A DNA stretch of 33,024 nt from Deltaproteobacteria bacterium RIFOXYD12_FULL_50_9 (GTDB taxonomy: Bacteria > Desulfobacterota > Desulfobulbia > Desulfobulbales > CALZHT01). Location of the stretch: NCBI GenBank assembly GCA_001799225.1, contig MGTA01000167.1, forward strand, positions 19,725 to 52,748. The letters are read 5' to 3'. The notes under the pieces are model-generated. The model was not told the DNA's origin, made no database searches, and was given only the letters and a program-made list of their open reading frames with translations. Shown in pieces: positions 14,345 to 24,815 of the stretch; position 1 is the first letter of the stretch; each line of letters begins with the position of its first letter. Both the position numbers and the translations under genes were made by a program.

Positions 14345-14448
14345 CCTGCCTGACAGCTCACCTGCCTGCCCAGGGCCTTTTGGTGTATCTTAGCCATTAT
14401 CCGTAAAATTTTTTAAACCGGTTGGCATTAATCATCAGGAGGTTCGCA

Positions 14449-15750
14449 ATGGATCAAACCAATGCCCAGATCAATTCCTCTGAACAGCATCAACCCCACA
14501 CCTTTTTCTTTGCCTCGACATATCTGGGTAAAGAACTGACGGCAAATGGCGAATCAGTCGGTCGGATCAAGGACCTTGTAGCCCATCGCGGCACAAGTAT
14601 TTATCCACAGCTTGATGGCGCAATCGTCCGCAAGCAGGGAAAAGATTATTTTTTGCCGGCGGAAAAGATCATCTTCCCCAGCACCTCAGCGCTTAAAAAG
14701 TTCGAGTTGGTTTCTGCTGAGCTTGCCGAGTATTCTCCTGAGAAACAGCAGTTTTTCCTCCGCGATGTTTTTATGGACAAACAGATAGTCGACATGCAGG
14801 GTGCCAAAGTAGAAAGGGTAAATGATGTTCAGTTGATGACGGTTAATAACAAATCCTATCTGGTTCATGTTGATGTCGGACTTCCCGGACTTTTACGGCG
14901 TCTTGGTTTTGAAGGCCAGGTGCGCGGTTTGACCAGATTGTTTGGTAAAGATCTTAAAGAGGATTTGATCTCCTGGCGTTATGTGCAGCCCCTTGAGGCT
15001 GGTCATGGCACAGTTCCTGTCCGGCTTATGGTTGATCATCAAGCATTAAAAGGACTGCATCCTGCTGATCTTGCTGAGATTCTTGAAGATCTGAATAAAG
15101 GGGATCGTGTCGCACTGCTCCATACTGTAGATACTGAGACAGCAGCAAACGCCCTGGAGATGGTCGAGCCTGAACTAGGTGCTGCGATCGTCCAGGATCT
15201 TGATCCTACCAGAGCCGCAGAGATCTTTGAGGAGATGGAACCTTCAGTAGCTGCAGATATCTTTGAAGAGTTACCCGAGATGCACCAGGAGGTCATCATG
15301 GGACAGATGGAGCCTGAGGAGCGTGACGAAATCGGGTTGCTCCAGGCCTTTGAAGAGAGAACGGCAGGCTCTCTGATGACCACTGATTTTCTGCAGATAT
15401 GTATTACAAAAACCGTTGGCGATGCCCTTAAGTTCATTCGCGACAATGCTGATGAGGTGGAAATAGTTCATTATGTCTATGTCGGTGACGACTATGGCCA
15501 TCTGATTGGTGTTGTAAGCATAAAGCAGCTTATTCTGGCAGCGCCGGAGGTCTTGTTGCACGACCTTGAGATGCCCAGGTTGATCACGGTCGAGACGGAT
15601 GATGAACTGGAAAAGGTGGCTGATCAGTTTTATAAATATAAATTTCTAGCCATACCAGTGGTGGACGACAAAACAAGGTTGCTTGGCATTATCAGTTACA
15701 AGCACAGCTTTGATGAACTGGTCTCCTACTATTATCGGGAAGCGGCGTAA
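14449..15750 (+). CDS. Soluble MgtE_N + tandem CBS domain protein (MgtE cytoplasmic sensor module without the membrane domain)
   Basis: ATG at 14449 lies 6 nt after AGGAGG; the track start TTG 14422 is rejected. MgtE_N-like helical repeats are acidic: LHPADLAEILEDLNKGDRVALL...RAAEIFEEMEPSVAADIFEELP. A CBS pair follows: GSLMTTDFLQI...LIGVVSIKQLI and FLAIPVVDDKTRLLGIIS. A roughly 130-aa N-terminal extension may be PRC-barrel-like. The protein ends without any hydrophobic TM region. Confidence 0.87.
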   Translation: MDQTNAQINSSEQHQPHTFFFASTYLGKELTANGESVGRIKDLVAHRGTSIYPQLDGAIVRKQGKDYFLPAEKIIFPSTSALKKFELVSAELAEYSPEKQQFFLRDVFMDKQIVDMQGAKVERVNDVQLMTVNNKSYLVHVDVGLPGLLRRLGFEGQVRGLTRLFGKDLKEDLISWRYVQPLEAGHGTVPVRLMVDHQALKGLHPADLAEILEDLNKGDRVALLHTVDTETAANALEMVEPELGAAIVQDLDPTRAAEIFEEMEPSVAADIFEELPEMHQEVIMGQMEPEERDEIGLLQAFEERTAGSLMTTDFLQICITKTVGDALKFIRDNADEVEIVHYVYVGDDYGHLIGVVSIKQLILAAPEVLLHDLEMPRLITVETDDELEKVADQFYKYKFLAIPVVDDKTRLLGIISYKHSFDELVSYYYREAA

Positions 15751-15753
15751 CTG

Positions 15754-16992
15754 ATGGCTGAGACAAAAAAAAGTTTTAGACTGCGGTTTCTGCTGTTTTT
15801 GAGCATCATGGGACCCGGGATTATTACCGCCAATGTCGATAATGACGCAGGCGGAATTGCGACATACAGCCAGGCCGGCGCCTTGTATGGTTTCGATGTA
15901 TTATGGATATTTATCCCCATGACCGTGGTCCTGGTTCTTGTCCAGGAGATGGCAAATCGTATGGGGGTGGTCACCGGCGATGGTTTGTCCTCCCTTATCC
16001 GAGAGCGGTTTGGCGTAAAAATCACCTTTTATCTTATGCTGGCCCTGCTGGTCACCAACTTCGGCAATATTATGGCCGAGTTTGCCGGAATAGCTTCTGC
16101 CGCCGAACTGTTCGGCATCCCGCGTATTATTGCCGTACCGATCTGTGCCTTTTTGGTTTGGTACATGGTATTGCGCTGGAGTTACCGATCGGTGGAAAAG
16201 ATTTTTTTACTCGGTTGTTTTTTTTATGTGGCTTATCTGCTTTCCGCTTTCATGGCCAAGCCGGACATGGGTGAGATCGCTATTGCCCTGGTAACACCGA
16301 AACTGATCGCCACCAAGGATTACATGTTCATGCTGATCGGTATTGTCGGTACGACAATTGCGCCGTGGATGCAGTTTTATCAGCAGGCAAGCATTGTTGA
16401 GAAGGGGATAGATATTGAAGACTACAGCTATTCCCGCTCCGACACCATCCTGGGTGGTATTACCGTAAGTATTGTCGCCATGTGCATTGTAGTGGTCTGC
16501 GCCATGACCCTGCATCGCAGCGGGATCAGCATTGAGGATGCCTCGCAGGCGGCGCAGGCCCTAGCTCCTCTGGCCGGTCTGCAGGCCAGTAAACTTTTTG
16601 CTTTTGGGTTGTGGAATGCCTCAATGTTCGCGGCCTGTATATTGCCACTCTCTACTGCTTATTCGATCTGCGAGGCTCTTGGTTGGGAGCGCGGTGTTGA
16701 TCAGCGCTATGAGGATGCAAAGCAATTTTATGTTCTCTATACAACCTCGATCATCCTTGGTGCTTTGATTGTCCTGATCCCCGGCCTCTCCTTGATGAAC
16801 GTAATGCTCATCTCCCAGATCGTTAATGGTTTTCTCTTTACGGTCATTCTCGTTTTCATGCTCATCCTGGTGAATGATGAAAAACTGATGGGGAAGTATA
16901 CCAACAGCCGGTTTTATAATGCGGTCTGCTTCGCAACCGTTGTCGTTTTAGCGCTAATTTCGGTTGTTTCGTTGTTTTCATTGGTTCTGTAA
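15754..16992 (+). CDS. NRAMP-family transporter with NRMT-type (Mg2+-like) binding-site residues
   Basis: 412 aa and polytopic. ATG lies 3 nt after the upstream TAA. The TM1 motif reads D31-A-G-G34 where canonical NRAMPs have DPGN. TM6 reads T200-T-I-A203-P-W-M where canonical NRAMPs have A-x-x-M-P-H-N. Confidence 0.9.
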   Translation: MAETKKSFRLRFLLFLSIMGPGIITANVDNDAGGIATYSQAGALYGFDVLWIFIPMTVVLVLVQEMANRMGVVTGDGLSSLIRERFGVKITFYLMLALLVTNFGNIMAEFAGIASAAELFGIPRIIAVPICAFLVWYMVLRWSYRSVEKIFLLGCFFYVAYLLSAFMAKPDMGEIAIALVTPKLIATKDYMFMLIGIVGTTIAPWMQFYQQASIVEKGIDIEDYSYSRSDTILGGITVSIVAMCIVVVCAMTLHRSGISIEDASQAAQALAPLAGLQASKLFAFGLWNASMFAACILPLSTAYSICEALGWERGVDQRYEDAKQFYVLYTTSIILGALIVLIPGLSLMNVMLISQIVNGFLFTVILVFMLILVNDEKLMGKYTNSRFYNAVCFATVVVLALISVVSLFSLVL

Positions 16993-20173: not shown

Positions 20174-22300
20174 TTACCGCCAGGTGTCTCCTCCAACTTC
20201 CCATATCTGATAGTTTGGCGTGCTTTGCAACACAGGTTTAAAATATTCAGGGGGCATTGGAGTTTTTAGCCAGAATAGATTGTTAAAGAGACGCTGCCCG
20301 GAGTCTCTGCTTAAAAGTAGTGCCATATTTTGCTCAGAAAAGATATCGAACTCATAACTGCCGGCGGAATTTTCAAGTTGAACAGGGTGAGGGGGATAAT
20401 CATACCGAGAAATTTTTTCGGTGGTTCTAAACAGTGCCGAGGTGATGGGAGTTGGCGCTCCTGAGAGATTGACAACTCCGGTTTGGAGGTCGGCATGCAT
20501 GGTTCCACTCTTGTTTGTTACATTTAAACCTTTAATAATAATATTTTTGAACAGCTTGCCTGGCAGTGGCGAGACTCCGGTTTGCTTATTGATATCCCAG
20601 GTACCTAAGAAGACGATCCAGTGATTTACCTGCATTAGTCCCCAATCCAGAAAAAGATATACAGGCCTGGAACGGGGCGGAAAAAGAAAGGTAAGCCACC
20701 CCCCAGCCGGCATGTTTGCCTGAGACAAGTTAAACTTTTTAAGAATTATGGAAGCTTCCTGCGGACCGGCAGCCATGATTCTTTTCAGGAGTTCGTAGCC
20801 GGTGGCGCGATCTTTGCCAACGGACTGATAAAATAGATTTATTCCCGGCGTGCCATGTCTGACATAAAATTGAATGAAGTTAGCGGCCAGACGCGGATTT
20901 TCAGTGGCTAATGGCATTGAGTTGTAAACAGACTGTTCGCCGCTATGTGTTTGTCCGTCGCAAGTTGTTCCTCGATTTCCCCAGTAACTTAGAGGATAGC
21001 CATTGTCACAAAAAGTCCAGACAATCGCACCAGCAGGAGTGACCCGTTGCAGTTGCGACATGCCGGCGATGCTCGCCCCTGGGAAGGGCATGGCGAATGC
21101 AGCCTCCCCCTTGTACGAGGTCCAGGAAGCATAGATAATCAGGCCGGGAATAATAAGGTACTTTGTTTTGCGGAGGCTGACGGGTCTGCATAGTTCGACC
21201 ATAAAGAAACCAAAACCAAGTGCAATCACTGGTGTGATAAAGATCATAAACCTATCTGCAGCAAAAGCCAGCAGGGCCAGGAGAATTGGCATGATGAGAA
21301 ATAAGCTCTGCTTTGAGTGACGTGCGAAAAGCAAAATTAAACCTGTCAGGCTTATTCCGAAGAGAAGCCAGCTGCCGGTGGATCTGGCAACGAACAGAGG
21401 TAGCGATAGGCCCGCCTGTTCGGTAATCACTTTCCCCATGGGCGGGAAATCATCTTTGCCGGGATGGATTATATAGTGATAGTAATTTTGAAATTTATGA
21501 AATACCGAATTTGCTGGATTGAACTCTTGCCATGTCACGGCTATTAAGGAGATGGCGACAACAAACAGGATAAATTTTTTTGCTTCAGGTCCAGGCGGAC
21601 GATAGAAATAGACCAGGGCCGTGGTGAATGGCACCAGGAAAATAGCCAATACCACATACGGGGCCTGATCCCACCACCATAAAAACAATATTAGAGTTGC
21701 TACCGCAGAGATCAGATAGTAATAACGTTTCCGGCCGGTTTCAGTTGCAAATTTAAGTAAGAAGAAGACAATTGCCATTAAAAGGGTGGGATTCAGGCAG
21801 TCGGTATCATATTGACCAAAAGAACTCCTGGCAAGGTGGGCATTAGAGATAAGACTAAAAGCCGCAGCCGTAAGTCCCATGATAGTTCCACCCCATAATT
21901 TGCCAAGACAATACGAAGGAATAGCAAGCATTACACCTAATACGGCTGGAAGAACAACCGCAACCCAGTTTAACGAAAAGGAACTTGCCCTGGAGATAGC
22001 AGCGGTCATCACAGAGAGCAAAGGCGGTGGAAAAGGTCGAGGTGGGTTGGCAGGTACGGAACGGAGTTCGTCAACGGTATTATAGCGATTGTTAACGAGA
22101 TCCTGAGCAAGACGCAGGTAATAATAGCCATCGCCGGTAGCAATTAAAGGTTCTTCGTTATGAAATGCCTCTGAGGCGTTGGTGCGCCAATCCTTTAGGT
22201 CATCCAGGCGTATTACCAGACCCCAAAGAATAATTATACCAAGGGCTAAAGCTTTTAGGAGTCTTTGATGTGCAGGATTGTCAGTCAAGGGCATTGCCAA
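20174..22300 (-). CDS. STT3/PglB-family oligosaccharyltransferase homologue with a non-canonical WWDYG region
   Basis: 708 aa. It aligns by eye to Campylobacter lari PglB. ATGDGYYYLRLAQD matches TNDGYAFAEGARD. RSSFGQYDTDCLN matches RTMSGYYDTDMLV. VITEQ matches the TIxE motif. IVWTFCDNGYPLSYWGNRGTTCDGQTH matches [26 protein letters not shown]. The start is TTG 22300 or ATG 22294. Confidence 0.85.
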   Translation of the reverse strand: MAMPLTDNPAHQRLLKALALGIIILWGLVIRLDDLKDWRTNASEAFHNEEPLIATGDGYYYLRLAQDLVNNRYNTVDELRSVPANPPRPFPPPLLSVMTAAISRASSFSLNWVAVVLPAVLGVMLAIPSYCLGKLWGGTIMGLTAAAFSLISNAHLARSSFGQYDTDCLNPTLLMAIVFFLLKFATETGRKRYYYLISAVATLILFLWWWDQAPYVVLAIFLVPFTTALVYFYRPPGPEAKKFILFVVAISLIAVTWQEFNPANSVFHKFQNYYHYIIHPGKDDFPPMGKVITEQAGLSLPLFVARSTGSWLLFGISLTGLILLFARHSKQSLFLIMPILLALLAFAADRFMIFITPVIALGFGFFMVELCRPVSLRKTKYLIIPGLIIYASWTSYKGEAAFAMPFPGASIAGMSQLQRVTPAGAIVWTFCDNGYPLSYWGNRGTTCDGQTHSGEQSVYNSMPLATENPRLAANFIQFYVRHGTPGINLFYQSVGKDRATGYELLKRIMAAGPQEASIILKKFNLSQANMPAGGWLTFLFPPRSRPVYLFLDWGLMQVNHWIVFLGTWDINKQTGVSPLPGKLFKNIIIKGLNVTNKSGTMHADLQTGVVNLSGAPTPITSALFRTTEKISRYDYPPHPVQLENSAGSYEFDIFSEQNMALLLSRDSGQRLFNNLFWLKTPMPPEYFKPVLQSTPNYQIWEVGGDTWR

Positions 22301-22311
22301 AGTTTAGAAAC

Positions 22312-24714
22312 CTATTGTGGGGCATTTATTGTAGCAGGTTTAGTTTTCTCCAGTTCAAATTTATTGTCCGGTTGGATCTTGGCAGTCTTAATAAAATTTT
22401 CATATTCGGCCCAGTCCGGATGACCAGGGTAGTTGGCCAGAAGCCTGCTGAACATGATTGCTGCTTGTTTATTGTTATTTTGTTCCTGGTAACAAAGGCC
22501 GGCCAGTTCAATTAGCGGGAAAAAGTCCAGCGCCGAATTTAAATAGTGTTTTGTCAGTTTTAACGCTTCATCGGTTTGGTTTGTTTTAAGTCGCCAGCGG
22601 GCTAAATAATAACCAGCGACAGGGTCTTGCGGCTCAAGGCGGGCAGCCTCTTTTAGAAAATATTCAATAGACCCTTCTAAAGGGTGGTACGATTTTTCTA
22701 TAAAACCGGCCAGGAAAAGATACGACTTGAACCGGAAGTTGTGTATTGACACTGGCCTGTTTGCAAGATTTACCGCGTTAATCGCCCTTTTGTTTTTTTC
22801 GAGCGCATTTTCTAAATTCCTCTTAATCTCTAACGTTGCTATATCATTCGGATCCTTTTCCAGGGCCATTTTCAGGTATTGTTCAGTATTTCGGTAATCT
22901 CGTTTGGCAAAAAGCGTTCCGGCAATTTTACGATGAACGGCAACCGGTTTATTCTCTAACTCAAGTTGCAGGCGTCCCTTTTCACTGGTCATGGCCTCCA
23001 GCAATAAGGCTTCCATAGCTCCTAAGGCAATTTTTGCGTCAGTGGTGCCCTTAACTAAAGCAGCATATGAAAACGCTTCAAAGGACGCCTGCAAGTTGCC
23101 GAGTTTCCAGTAAGCAGTTCCCAGATTTAACATTATCCTTTGAAAGCCATCCCAATTGATCCCCTTGGGTCTCTCTTTTATATATTTTTCTGCCCGGTCA
23201 GCGGCCTCCTGGAACTTCCCCTGTTCCCTCAAGATGTTTACAATGTTGTTGGCTGCCTTCAGATACTCTTCATAGTTGTTCTTTCCCAGAGCTATTGTTT
23301 GCTCCAGAGTGGCCAGACCCTCTTCATATCGACCTGATATTGCCAATATAACGCCTAAATTGTTCAGCACTCTTGGTTTATTTGGGGATTTTTTGGCACA
23401 ATCCTTCATAAGAGTGTATTCATCCTGCCAAACGGTATTGCGGATAGATGTGAAAGTAGTCAATACGCAAACAATAATTACAGTTCCCAAAAATATTATC
23501 TGCTTTAATTCTATGTCATTTTTTGCTGAAATAAATCGTATACCTATGTCGACCAGCGCGATCATAACAATAAAAAAGCCCAGGGAGGGCAGGTAAAGAC
23601 GATGCTCAAAAACAAGTTCCAGGCCGATAATGGATGATTCCAAAATCAGATTCAGGAAAAAAAACAAAATGCCAAATGATATTAGTTTGTTATGTCGACT
23701 AGCTTTGAAAGCGATCCATAAAAGAGAAGCGATAAACAGCAGTGCGAGAAGGGTGGTCGGGGGTGCCAATAATGAATGAGAAATAGTAAAGTCATGCTCA
23801 AGGTTGAAACGACCTGGCAGCGGAAATATAAGCAGAGAGAGGTAAAAAACGATTACCCGTAGTTCTGTCAACAATCTTTCTGAAATAGTGAAATGCCTGT
23901 TTGAGAAAGTTTCGTAAATCGTCGAGAGATTCGCATAAAGCAAGGGCAAAAGCAATAGAATAACAATGGCCAGACCAAGAAGTTGCTGCCATCTTATTTT
24001 GGCCATGATATTTTTGCCAAGCTCGGGTGAAATAAAAAGCATCTCAACCAATAATAGCGCTAAGGGCAGAGTAAAGGAGTTTTCCTTGGATAAGAAGGCG
24101 CACAGCGCAAAGATGATAAAGCCAACCCAGGCAATATAACGTTGCGGTTTTGAGATATTGATCCGGCCCCAAATATAACAAGTAAGGGCGGCAAAATAGA
24201 ACAGGGCAACCAATGACGCCATTCTTTGCACCAGGTAGGTAACGGCATTTGTCTGCACCGGGTGCACGGCCCACAAGGCGGTAACGAACAGGCTGAAGTA
24301 TTCCGGCGCAATAAACTTCAGAGACCTCTTCGCTATTAAAGTTGAACATAAGGCGCGCATTAAGAGATAAACAGCAGTAGTCGACAGAATATGAATAAGG
24401 ATGTTGGTTAAGTGAAATTGCTTAACACTCCCCTTGCCTATCATGTGATCGATTGCAAAGGTGAGGAGGGGAATTAAACGTCCCAGGCCGAAACGTGTTG
24501 AGGAGAGCTTTTGCAGGGACTCAAGTGAAAAATTATCAATATAAACTTTAGGCTCGTCAATGAAAGTTGCTTTATCATCAAGCACTAGAGGTGAATAAAG
24601 AGTATTGCTGTAACTGAGGCAAATAAAGCAGAGAACAAAAAGGAAAAGTACATGCGGAGATAAAGAAGTAATTCGAACCTGCCAGGAATGGTTTTTATCC
24701 TTTTCTGTCATCAT
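22312..24714 (-). CDS. Polytopic membrane protein with C-terminal TPR repeats, TMTC-like GT-C glycosyltransferase
   Basis: 800 aa. After TM1 comes NTLYSPLVLDDKATFIDEP, resembling the F-x-F/L-DD first-loop motif of TMTC/DUF1736-type GT-Cs. About 10-12 hydrophobic segments run to roughly residue 430, followed by about 350 aa of TPR-like repeats. The family assignment (about 0.6) is less certain than the architecture. Confidence 0.78.
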   Translation of the reverse strand: MMTEKDKNHSWQVRITSLSPHVLFLFVLCFICLSYSNTLYSPLVLDDKATFIDEPKVYIDNFSLESLQKLSSTRFGLGRLIPLLTFAIDHMIGKGSVKQFHLTNILIHILSTTAVYLLMRALCSTLIAKRSLKFIAPEYFSLFVTALWAVHPVQTNAVTYLVQRMASLVALFYFAALTCYIWGRINISKPQRYIAWVGFIIFALCAFLSKENSFTLPLALLLVEMLFISPELGKNIMAKIRWQQLLGLAIVILLLLPLLYANLSTIYETFSNRHFTISERLLTELRVIVFYLSLLIFPLPGRFNLEHDFTISHSLLAPPTTLLALLFIASLLWIAFKASRHNKLISFGILFFFLNLILESSIIGLELVFEHRLYLPSLGFFIVMIALVDIGIRFISAKNDIELKQIIFLGTVIIVCVLTTFTSIRNTVWQDEYTLMKDCAKKSPNKPRVLNNLGVILAISGRYEEGLATLEQTIALGKNNYEEYLKAANNIVNILREQGKFQEAADRAEKYIKERPKGINWDGFQRIMLNLGTAYWKLGNLQASFEAFSYAALVKGTTDAKIALGAMEALLLEAMTSEKGRLQLELENKPVAVHRKIAGTLFAKRDYRNTEQYLKMALEKDPNDIATLEIKRNLENALEKNKRAINAVNLANRPVSIHNFRFKSYLFLAGFIEKSYHPLEGSIEYFLKEAARLEPQDPVAGYYLARWRLKTNQTDEALKLTKHYLNSALDFFPLIELAGLCYQEQNNNKQAAIMFSRLLANYPGHPDWAEYENFIKTAKIQPDNKFELEKTKPATINAPQ

Positions 24715-24784: not shown

Positions 24785-24815
24785 AAAAAACCCGACTCGT
24801 AAAGTCGGGTTTTTT
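24785..24815 (-). terminator. Intrinsic (bidirectional-looking) terminator after the pilin gene
   Basis: A6-CCCGACT-CGTAA-AGTCGGG-T6. On the minus strand the hairpin is followed by TTTTTT, 29 nt after the pilin TAA. Confidence 0.85.

Follow-up and report, generated by a model that had tools for sequence, protein, structure and literature searches.

A cysteine pair at the WWD position of an STT3/PglB-like protein from a bacterial type IV pilin cluster

Single-subunit oligosaccharyltransferases (OSTs) such as PglB recognize the +2 Ser/Thr hydroxyl of the sequon N-X-S/T by means of three hydrogen-bond partners, which are the residues of the WWD motif. What becomes of acceptor recognition if two of these residues are replaced? 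This question is raised by a stretch of 33,024 nucleotides from Deltaproteobacteria bacterium RIFOXYD12_FULL_50_9 (contig MGTA01000167.1, positions 19,725 to 52,748; in the following, the window), a metagenome-assembled genome from groundwater. On its minus strand, the window encodes an STT3/PglB-like protein which reads FCDNG at the position of WWDYG. A first-pass annotation of this DNA had proposed that the enzyme is probably active but altered in its acceptor recognition, with a non-sequon N-linkage or a different nucleophile.

The STT3-like protein and its cysteine pair

The alignment with PglB of Campylobacter lari shows where the substitution lies: the segment "ivwtfcdngyplsyw" pairs with PglB "yvvawwdygypiryy" at high posterior probability (phmmer), and F430-C431-D432-N-G lies opposite W463-W464-D465-Y-G in the HMMER alignments with PDB chains as well as with the family profile. 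The first-pass annotation had read this position in the same way, and the open reading frame and the five codons lie exactly where it had located them (Table 1). No other WWDxG was found in the C-terminal domain. The sole W-W-D of the protein (W209-W210-D211) belongs to the membrane domain and is aligned to W194-W195-Y196 of PglB; a canonical motif elsewhere was therefore rejected. As Asp432 alone is left of the three partners of the +2 hydroxyl, an altered acceptor recognition is a reasonable assumption.

By fold and catalytic residues, the protein is a member of the STT3/PglB/AglB superfamily (CAZy GT66). Pfam and Foldseek identified both a multi-pass GT-C membrane domain and a periplasmic STT3/PglB core domain; the Pfam matches are above the gathering cutoffs (STT3, PF02516, E-value 1.7e-23; STT3-PglB_core, PF21436, E-value 8.4e-8). 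Among the PDB chains, C. lari PglB (5OGL, 6GXC, 3RCE) was the top phmmer match with an E-value of ~1e-20, which improved to 5e-53 with a profile of 37 family sequences, while the register remained unchanged. An AlphaFold2 model deduced from the family alignment has a mean predicted local distance difference test (pLDDT) score of 89.7 and a predicted TM-score of 0.89; for residues 421-450, pLDDT values are 92-96. In a Foldseek comparison, full-length PglB was the best match of this model (TM-score 0.72, E-value 5e-29), followed by eukaryotic STT3 and archaeal AglB. The score against the PglB equivalog model NF050801 of NCBIfam is 113.5 bits, the cutoff being 1300. The GTDB genome collection contains a best relative with an identity of 43% in a partial match, and of ~40% when the full length is compared. 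The GenBank version (OGR03893.1) comprises 706 residues and is labelled "hypothetical protein"; it starts with an ATG two codons downstream of the TTG which gives 708 residues.

A sequencing error or a pseudogene was considered and rejected. The same protein, 100% identical, occurs on five contigs originating from at least two samples that were assembled separately, Cys431 is found throughout the clade, also in relatives with an identity of 38-53%, and the open reading frame and the catalytic residues are intact. This excludes an error at the FCDNG codons, which the first-pass annotation had named as a caveat.

Cys431 does not stand alone. Sixteen residues downstream follows a second cysteine, Cys447, which directly precedes the DG of the motif equivalent to DGGK. 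Family statistics were computed from an alignment of 217 homologues found by HMMER: all 12 sequences with a cysteine at the second WWD position possess Cys447 as well, which occurs in 4 of the 205 others (Fisher p 1e-16, without phylogenetic correction). Among the near relatives, Cys431 is present in 8/8 and in 0/77 of the other homologues; Asp432 is kept in 8/8 clade members. According to DSSP, the strands 426-428 and 444-445 of the model are paired and joined by a helix (431-441), such that both cysteines are located just past the strand ends. This geometry is compatible with a disulfide. That Cys431 is always accompanied by the clade-specific Cys447 suggests a disulfide bond between the two residues in place of the tryptophan.

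The nearest relatives (P0002-P0007 and P0009; 37-53% identity) read WCDNG, except for P0009, which reads PCDNG. In a neighbor-joining tree, rooted on canonical WWDYG sequences of the Desulfovibrio type, the cysteine clade is monophyletic and nested among WWD-bearing proteins, which argues for a single exchange of W464 for cysteine at the base of the clade. The window protein is on a terminal branch; the exchange of W463 for phenylalanine is thus private to its lineage. Checking the orthologues for conservation of FCD, as the first-pass annotation had recommended, consequently gave a split answer: Cys431 and Asp432 are conserved in the clade, Phe430 is not. The key substitution is W464 to cysteine; being clade-wide and coupled to Cys447, it looks, judged from the sequences, like an engineered pocket and not like decay.

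The catalytic machinery of PglB (residue roles according to PMC7226087) is present in the window protein. D57 corresponds to D56, R158 to R147, D165 and D167 to D154 and D156, and E294 to E319, as the first-pass annotation had claimed; R350 corresponds to R375. Since these metal and carboxamide residues are intact, the enzyme looks active. The pentad D57-D165-D167-E294-R350 is complete in 201 of the 217 family members. Y435, the equivalent of the reducing-end sugar contact Y468, is present in 8/8 clade members and 70/77 others; R306, the equivalent of R331, in 6/8 clade members, and the position of I572 is occupied by a hydrophobic residue. In the profile alignment, L-M-Q-V stands opposite M-L-R-I of PglB (bacterial MxxI; DK in archaea and eukaryotes), which is the second motif of the acceptor pocket, and DGQTH stands opposite DGGKH; in the family columns D448 and G449 are invariant and the lysine is absent. 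With regard to the first-pass proposal, activity and altered acceptor recognition are hence supported. A different nucleophile is disfavored, because the equivalents of D56 and E319 are invariant.

In the membrane domain, a family-invariant "WWWDQAP" (residues 208-211) aligns to L193-W-W-Y196-P of PglB. In PglB, Tyr196 is a contact of the lipid pyrophosphate; a tryptophan occupies its position throughout the family of the window enzyme. This family-wide exchange may be relevant to a monophosphate donor.

How unusual is the loss of WWD? A word-indexed search identified 85 homologues, and an exhaustive HMMER scan of 1.84 billion representatives 1,145 at E ≤ 1e-3 and 315 at E ≤ 1e-30. W-W-D is kept in 109 of the 217 aligned family members. 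The other states are clade-specific variants, for example TWWHG, SWTSG/TWTAG, DWSHG, SWGHG, and WWNEG; the first tryptophan is missing in ~12% of the members which otherwise retain WD. Whole clades without WWD (P0043-P0080 and P0212-P0343, with TWWHG/NWWHG, SWTSG/TWTAG, DWSHG, or SWGHG) keep the D-D-D-E-R pentad. In the sampled bacterial branch, the motif is far less universal than in the characterized enzymes, and its description as one of the most conserved features of the family, given in the first-pass annotation, does not hold there. A literature search for bacterial STT3 homologues that lack WWD or are linked to pilins, the coverage of which did not include subscription journals, found none.

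The gene cluster and its conservation

The gene is part of a tight co-directional cluster with gaps of 11-73 bp, which is flanked by housekeeping genes (thrS, infC, rplT, pheST, cysS, serA, ispE, prs, and tRNAs). The order on the minus strand is: prepilin, hairpin, a membrane protein of 800 residues with tetratricopeptide repeats (TPR), the STT3-like gene, a PMT_2 protein of 704 residues, and a glycosyltransferase of family GT2 with 289 residues. In order to assess which of these neighbors belong together, 10 non-redundant loci with the cysteine pair were compared with 80 other loci from named genomes, whose STT3-like proteins are at most 43% identical and mostly of the WWDHG type. One to three type IV pilin genes are located in 9/10 Cys-pair loci and in 3/80 others (Fisher p 3e-9); pilin adjacency as a property of the whole family was therefore rejected. 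An orthologue of the membrane domain of the 800-residue protein is encoded in 9/10 Cys-pair loci and in 0/80 others. The GT2 gene, which the first-pass annotation had overlooked as a conserved partner, adjoins the STT3-like gene in 9/10 Cys-pair loci (54-74% identity) and in 30/80 others (48-68%). In these 30 loci, the GT2 identity exceeds that of the STT3-like proteins, which is 36-40%.

Gene order and orientation vary among the Cys-pair loci, and the module spans two phyla: besides Desulfobacterota, it was found in the complete genome of the cultured gammaproteobacterium Thiocapsa bogorovii, whose STT3-like protein (WP_232408619.1) reads LCDYG and contains Cys447. Such a conserved linkage marks the genes as a module that is mobile and coupled in function. 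In T. bogorovii (locus L094; CP089309.1, 437936-456062), the module consists of pilin, TfpW-like, STT3, GT2, and GT4 genes. Its flanks carry toxin-antitoxin genes (BrnT/BrnA and HigB-like), PDDEXK_2 genes, and a gene for an rve transposase, which suggests a mobile or variable island.

The mature window pilin comprises 139 residues (cleavage at G|FTLIELM), has no cysteine, and contains no N-X-S/T, as the first-pass annotation had observed. The 13 pilins from the Cys-pair clusters constitute one family with 46-62% identity. Eight of them possess Asn55 (mature numbering; in the loop after the N-terminal helix), which is followed at +2 by Ser/Thr in five cases and by Lys/Arg in three. The five sequons NGT, NNS, NGS, NRT, and NNT belong to loci L083, L085, L086, L087, and to the second pilin of L089; N55-Q-R or N-Q-K occurs in three pilins, among them the primary pilins of the two closest relatives of the window. 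The window pilin itself reads H55-Q-R, and a sequon is absent from the Thiocapsa pilin. An Asn55 site of relaxed +2 requirement could produce such a pattern, which is nevertheless no proof of it. The sequon-less window pilin, which the first-pass annotation had put forward in favor of its proposal, is weak support, as orthologous pilins beside WCD enzymes carry N-X-S/T at position 55.

By sequence, the GT2 protein is a polyprenyl-monophosphate sugar synthase. Its best NCBIfam matches are AglJ (residues 10-284 of 289 aligned), PpgS, PgfS, and ArnC, the AglJ score of 127.7 being under the family cutoff of 325; its best PDB matches are ArnC, GtrB, and DPMS. This conserved partner points to an unusual donor, namely a polyprenyl-monophosphate sugar. 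A pgl-type locus is absent: neither a phosphoglycosyl-transferase nor a Wzx/PglK-type flippase was found in the window or in any Cys-pair cluster, nor were the GT-B enzymes of such loci. A GtrA/ArnEF-type small flippase was looked for as well. No GtrA homologue is encoded in the window or in 89 other loci; the only case is locus L093, where the STT3-like protein P0286 (WCDYG) is flanked by GT2 and a GtrA-family protein.

We call the 800-residue protein TfpW-like on account of its architecture and position, by analogy with the pilin O-glycosyltransferase TfpW of Pseudomonas aeruginosa. In nine orthologues, PLVLDD (DD46-47) in the first periplasmic loop is invariant; further invariant motifs are HxxNxxxH, WALHPVQTNAVTYLVQR, and FEHRxYLPS (window, L083, L085-L091, L094). 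Pfam detected TPR alone, and the N-terminal 440 residues gave no match. The AlphaFold2 model (pLDDT 88.3) shows a helical membrane domain and the TPR; in a Foldseek search with the full-length model, TPR matches dominated. An hhalign comparison with the PMT_2 and STT3 families gave no GT-C relationship, and an identity with TMTC/DUF1736 was not supported, since there is no such Pfam match even at E ≤ 5. In JGI annotations, the name "protein O-mannosyl-transferase" is given to some homologues. The family comprises at least 898 proteins, most of which are annotated just as "tetratricopeptide repeat protein"; by analogy, they may be unrecognized pilin or protein glycosyltransferases.

Table 1. 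Features of the cluster in the window and of the STT3-like protein (coordinates refer to the window)
Feature	Position	Strand	Basis or remark
GT2 polyprenyl-phosphate sugar synthase (predicted; GtrB/ArnC/AglJ/DPM1 type), 289 residues, two C-terminal transmembrane helices	17074..17943	-	NCBIfam, PDB
Third GT-C-type membrane protein, PMT_2 family (ArnT/Pmt-like), 704 residues	18017..20131	-	Pfam PMT_2, E-value 4.3e-8
STT3/PglB-family GT-C glycosyltransferase, 708 residues	20174..22300	-	Pfam, PDB matches, fold
Cys447 codon (TTC447-DGQTH, before DG of the DGGK-equivalent motif)	20960..20962	-	Clade-specific partner of Cys431, candidate disulfide
F430-C431-D432-N433-G434 (PglB WWDYG position), codons TTT TGT GAC AAT GGC	20999..21013	-	Sequence, HMMER, family columns
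R350 codon (PglB R375, lipid-phosphate contact)	21251..21253	-	Alignment; invariant
E294 codon (PglB E319, TIxE motif, external loop EL5)	21419..21421	-	Alignments; invariant
R158...D165-T-D167 (PglB R147, D154-x-D156; metal site)	21800..21829	-	Alignment; invariant or nearly so
D57 codon (PglB D56, external loop EL1; metal ligand and Asn carboxamide contact)	22130..22132	-	Alignment; family-invariant
TfpW-like protein, 800 residues, ~11 transmembrane helices, C-terminal TPR (~430-780)	22312..24714	-	Directly downstream of the pilin gene
Intrinsic-terminator-like hairpin, 14-bp stem AAAAAACCCGACT...AGTCGGGTTTTTT and T run	24785..24815	-	Between pilin stop and start of the 800-residue gene
Type IV prepilin (class III signal), 152 residues	24844..25302	-	Pfam N_methyl, NCBIfam pilin matches

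With its strong hairpin, this arrangement is the one to be expected where a major pilin is highly expressed and read-through into the modification genes is attenuated. The 704-residue PMT_2 protein between the STT3-like gene and GT2 is specific for the window among the Cys-pair loci, and a PMT_2 gene is absent from the 80 other loci; L085 has instead a PMT_2 protein of 512 residues and a protein with a TMEM260_N domain. With these extra genes, up to three GT-C-type enzymes accompany one polyprenyl-phosphate sugar synthase. Among the WWDHG relatives, one lineage (L008, L018, L020, L024, L027, L031, L048, L053, L078, and others) contains a block of GT9 heptosyltransferase, glnE, STT3, GT2, and GT4 genes. 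A GT9 gene was located at a distance of up to 10 kb in 18/80 loci, which all belong to this syntenic lineage; a systematic link to genes of the lipopolysaccharide (LPS) core is for this reason partial only, and the block hints at such a link or merely at inherited synteny. Elsewhere in the window, a protein with MgtE_N and CBS domains that lacks the MgtE channel domain (14422-15750, plus strand) is encoded 4 bp upstream of an Nramp transporter gene (15754-16992, plus strand); a role as a soluble sensor of divalent cations that pairs with this transporter is possible.

Proposed function and rival explanations

We tentatively favor the following function: the protein would be an active single-subunit glycosyltransferase of a pilin module, which has the PglB/STT3 fold, belongs to an uncharacterized pilin-associated clade, possesses a remodelled +2 pocket, and probably uses a polyprenyl-monophosphate sugar as donor. 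In such an enzyme, a periplasmic disulfide between Cys431 and Cys447 would fill the space of Trp464 and reshape the +2 pocket. Recognition of the +2 Ser/Thr hydroxyl would be relaxed or replaced, because Asp432 alone remains of the three hydrogen-bond partners. The nucleophile would still be the amide of an asparagine, because the equivalents of D56 and E319 (D57, E294) are kept. The donor would be a monosaccharide linked to polyprenyl monophosphate, provided by the adjacent GT2, and not an oligosaccharide linked to undecaprenyl diphosphate as in Campylobacter. Its sugar is possibly a 2-acetamido sugar (N-acetylhexosamine), as Tyr435 is kept and the GT2 resembles PpgS. Targets may be the type IV pilin, other proteins of the pilus system, or other periplasmic proteins. 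In this scheme, the STT3-like and the TfpW-like enzyme would be at work side by side; the latter probably uses the same lipid-linked sugar to O-glycosylate the pilin. Our confidence decreases from activity to the asparagine amide, further to the weakened or replaced +2 recognition and to the monophosphate donor, and is lowest for the pilin or pilus target.

Several points weigh against this proposal. Acceptor, donor, and linkage are all inferred. Asp432 and a hydrophobic equivalent of I572 are kept, for which reason an ordinary recognition of N-X-S/T is possible. The window pilin has neither Asn55 nor any sequon; if Asn55 is the target in the relatives, the window enzyme has lost it. The TfpW-like protein alone could account for the linkage to pilins. 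Moreover, the same GT2 accompanies WWDHG-type relatives that have no pilin nearby and is thus uninformative about the pilin specifically, and the donor is possibly synthesized elsewhere in the genome, beyond the 33-kb window.

The rival which survives best, although we consider it somewhat unlikely, is an ordinary N-oligosaccharyltransferase that reads N-X-S/T via Asp432 and backbone or hydrophobic contacts and acts on assorted periplasmic and outer-membrane proteins. The cysteine pair would then be a neutral structural substitution, and the linkage to pilins would be owed to the TfpW-like gene only. The conservation of Asp432 in 8/8 clade members, the hydrophobic residue at the I572 position, and Arg306 in 6/8 fit this explanation, as do the N-X-S/T sites at position 55 in pilins of five loci of the WCD clade; the precedent of TfpW accounts for a glycosyltransferase next to a pilin gene. 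It is less easily reconciled with the loss of two of the three hydrogen-bond donors in the window enzyme, with N55-Q-R in the primary pilins of the closest relatives, and with the sequon-free pilins of the window and of Thiocapsa. The strict coupling of the Cys-pair clade alone to pilin clusters over two phyla is hard to explain if the pilin is unrelated to the enzyme.

An improbable alternative is a non-protein acceptor. The STT3-like enzyme and GT2 would decorate a glycolipid or glycan (LPS core, lipid A, or a pilin glycan that is already in place), much as ArnC/ArnT or GtrB/GtrV do. The core pair, a GT-C enzyme and a polyprenyl-phosphate sugar synthase, indeed resembles these systems; a GtrA gene lies beside one member, the block of GT9, glnE, STT3, GT2, and GT4 is found in 18/80 loci among WWDHG relatives, and about half of the family lacks WWD. 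Yet D56 and E319, the clamp for the asparagine carboxamide, are invariant in their equivalents, the peptide-binding periplasmic core domain is retained, and the GT9 link is limited to a single syntenic lineage. An STT3-family member with a non-protein acceptor is not known, which further counts against this explanation. That FCD reflects relaxed selection and a function being lost in the window lineage, and not a new specificity, is very improbable: the exchange W430F is private to the window, its pilin has H55-Q-R where relatives have N55, and the first tryptophan is also lost in two Cys-pair members (P0009, PCD; P0320, LCD), but the open reading frame is full-length with all invariant family residues intact, the cluster is tight and co-directional, the identical protein recurs across several samples, and the same tryptophan is missing in ~12% of otherwise WD-retaining members.

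Returning to the favored function, a bolder version can be formulated, which we regard as doubtful. The whole Cys-pair clade (WCD, FCD, or LCD with Cys447) would serve type IV pilins specifically and be the first in the STT3 family of bacteria to do so. Its enzymes would transfer a single sugar from polyprenyl monophosphate to an asparagine or another residue that is read without the +2 Ser/Thr, with a disulfide-built pocket replacing the WWD reader, and about half of more than 1,000 bacterial homologues would follow rules other than N-X-S/T.

The significance of the locus follows from two observations: in a natural, conserved, and apparently functional lineage, WWD is replaced by a coupled cysteine pair, and in the surrounding bacterial family the motif varies widely while the catalytic machinery stays. 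If the enzyme is active, it would stand for new acceptor rules of protein N-glycosylation, a new type of pilin modification in sulfur-cycling bacteria, and a bacterial counterpart to the archaeal lipid-monophosphate route; glycoengineers would gain sequon-unrestricted transferases. As T. bogorovii is culturable and has the same module, the question is directly testable.

Comparison with known glycosylation systems

By sequence and fold, the closest known enzymes are the single-subunit GT66 proteins PglB of C. lari and C. jejuni. Shared are the GT-C domain with 13 transmembrane helices, the periplasmic core domain, and the equivalents of D56, R147, D154, D156, E319, R375, Y468, and R331. The differences are FCDNG in place of WWDYG together with the new Cys447, DGQTH in place of DGGKH, and LMQV in place of MxxI, at an identity of ~18-19%. 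The loci differ as well: PglC, PglA, PglH, and PglK are not encoded nearby; in their stead, a polyprenyl-monophosphate sugar synthase, a pilin, and a TfpW-like protein are found. The PglB orthologues of the Desulfovibrio type, which are deltaproteobacterial single-subunit OSTs, have a relaxed -2 requirement and were investigated with regard to altered sequon preference (Ollis et al. 2015, PMC4894442; Sotomayor et al. 2025, PMC12229607). In our homology search, no members are more distant than these (P0081-P0085; 26-30% identical to the window protein). Unlike the window enzyme with its FCDNG, they keep the canonical WWDYG and still require Ser/Thr at +2.

The archaeal AglB/AglJ system, which uses the dolichol-monophosphate route and modifies type IV pilins and archaellins, likewise combines an STT3-family transferase with an AglJ-like GT2. 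It has in common with the window the association with type IV pilin-like substrates, and a lipid-monophosphate donor is plausible for the window enzyme. In contrast, the host is a bacterium here, the enzyme is nearer to PglB than to AglB, and AglB itself retains WWDYG. The same logic is known from ArnC/ArnT and GtrA/GtrB/GtrV: a GT2 enzyme synthesizes an undecaprenyl-phosphate sugar, and its periplasmic transfer is the task of a GT-C enzyme. Their GT-C enzymes, however, are from different families, the acceptor being lipid A or O-antigen and not the asparagine residues of proteins, and the window lacks the GtrA gene of the Gtr systems.

TfpW transfers a sugar from polyprenyl phosphate and is part of the PilA(5196) arabinosylation system, which includes a GtrA-like helper. 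The 800-residue protein shares with it ~11 transmembrane helices, a DDx loop motif, the C-terminal TPR, and the location of the gene right after the pilin gene. Note that this likeness concerns the neighbor and not the STT3-like enzyme; the TfpW system has no STT3-family member, whereas the window encodes both.

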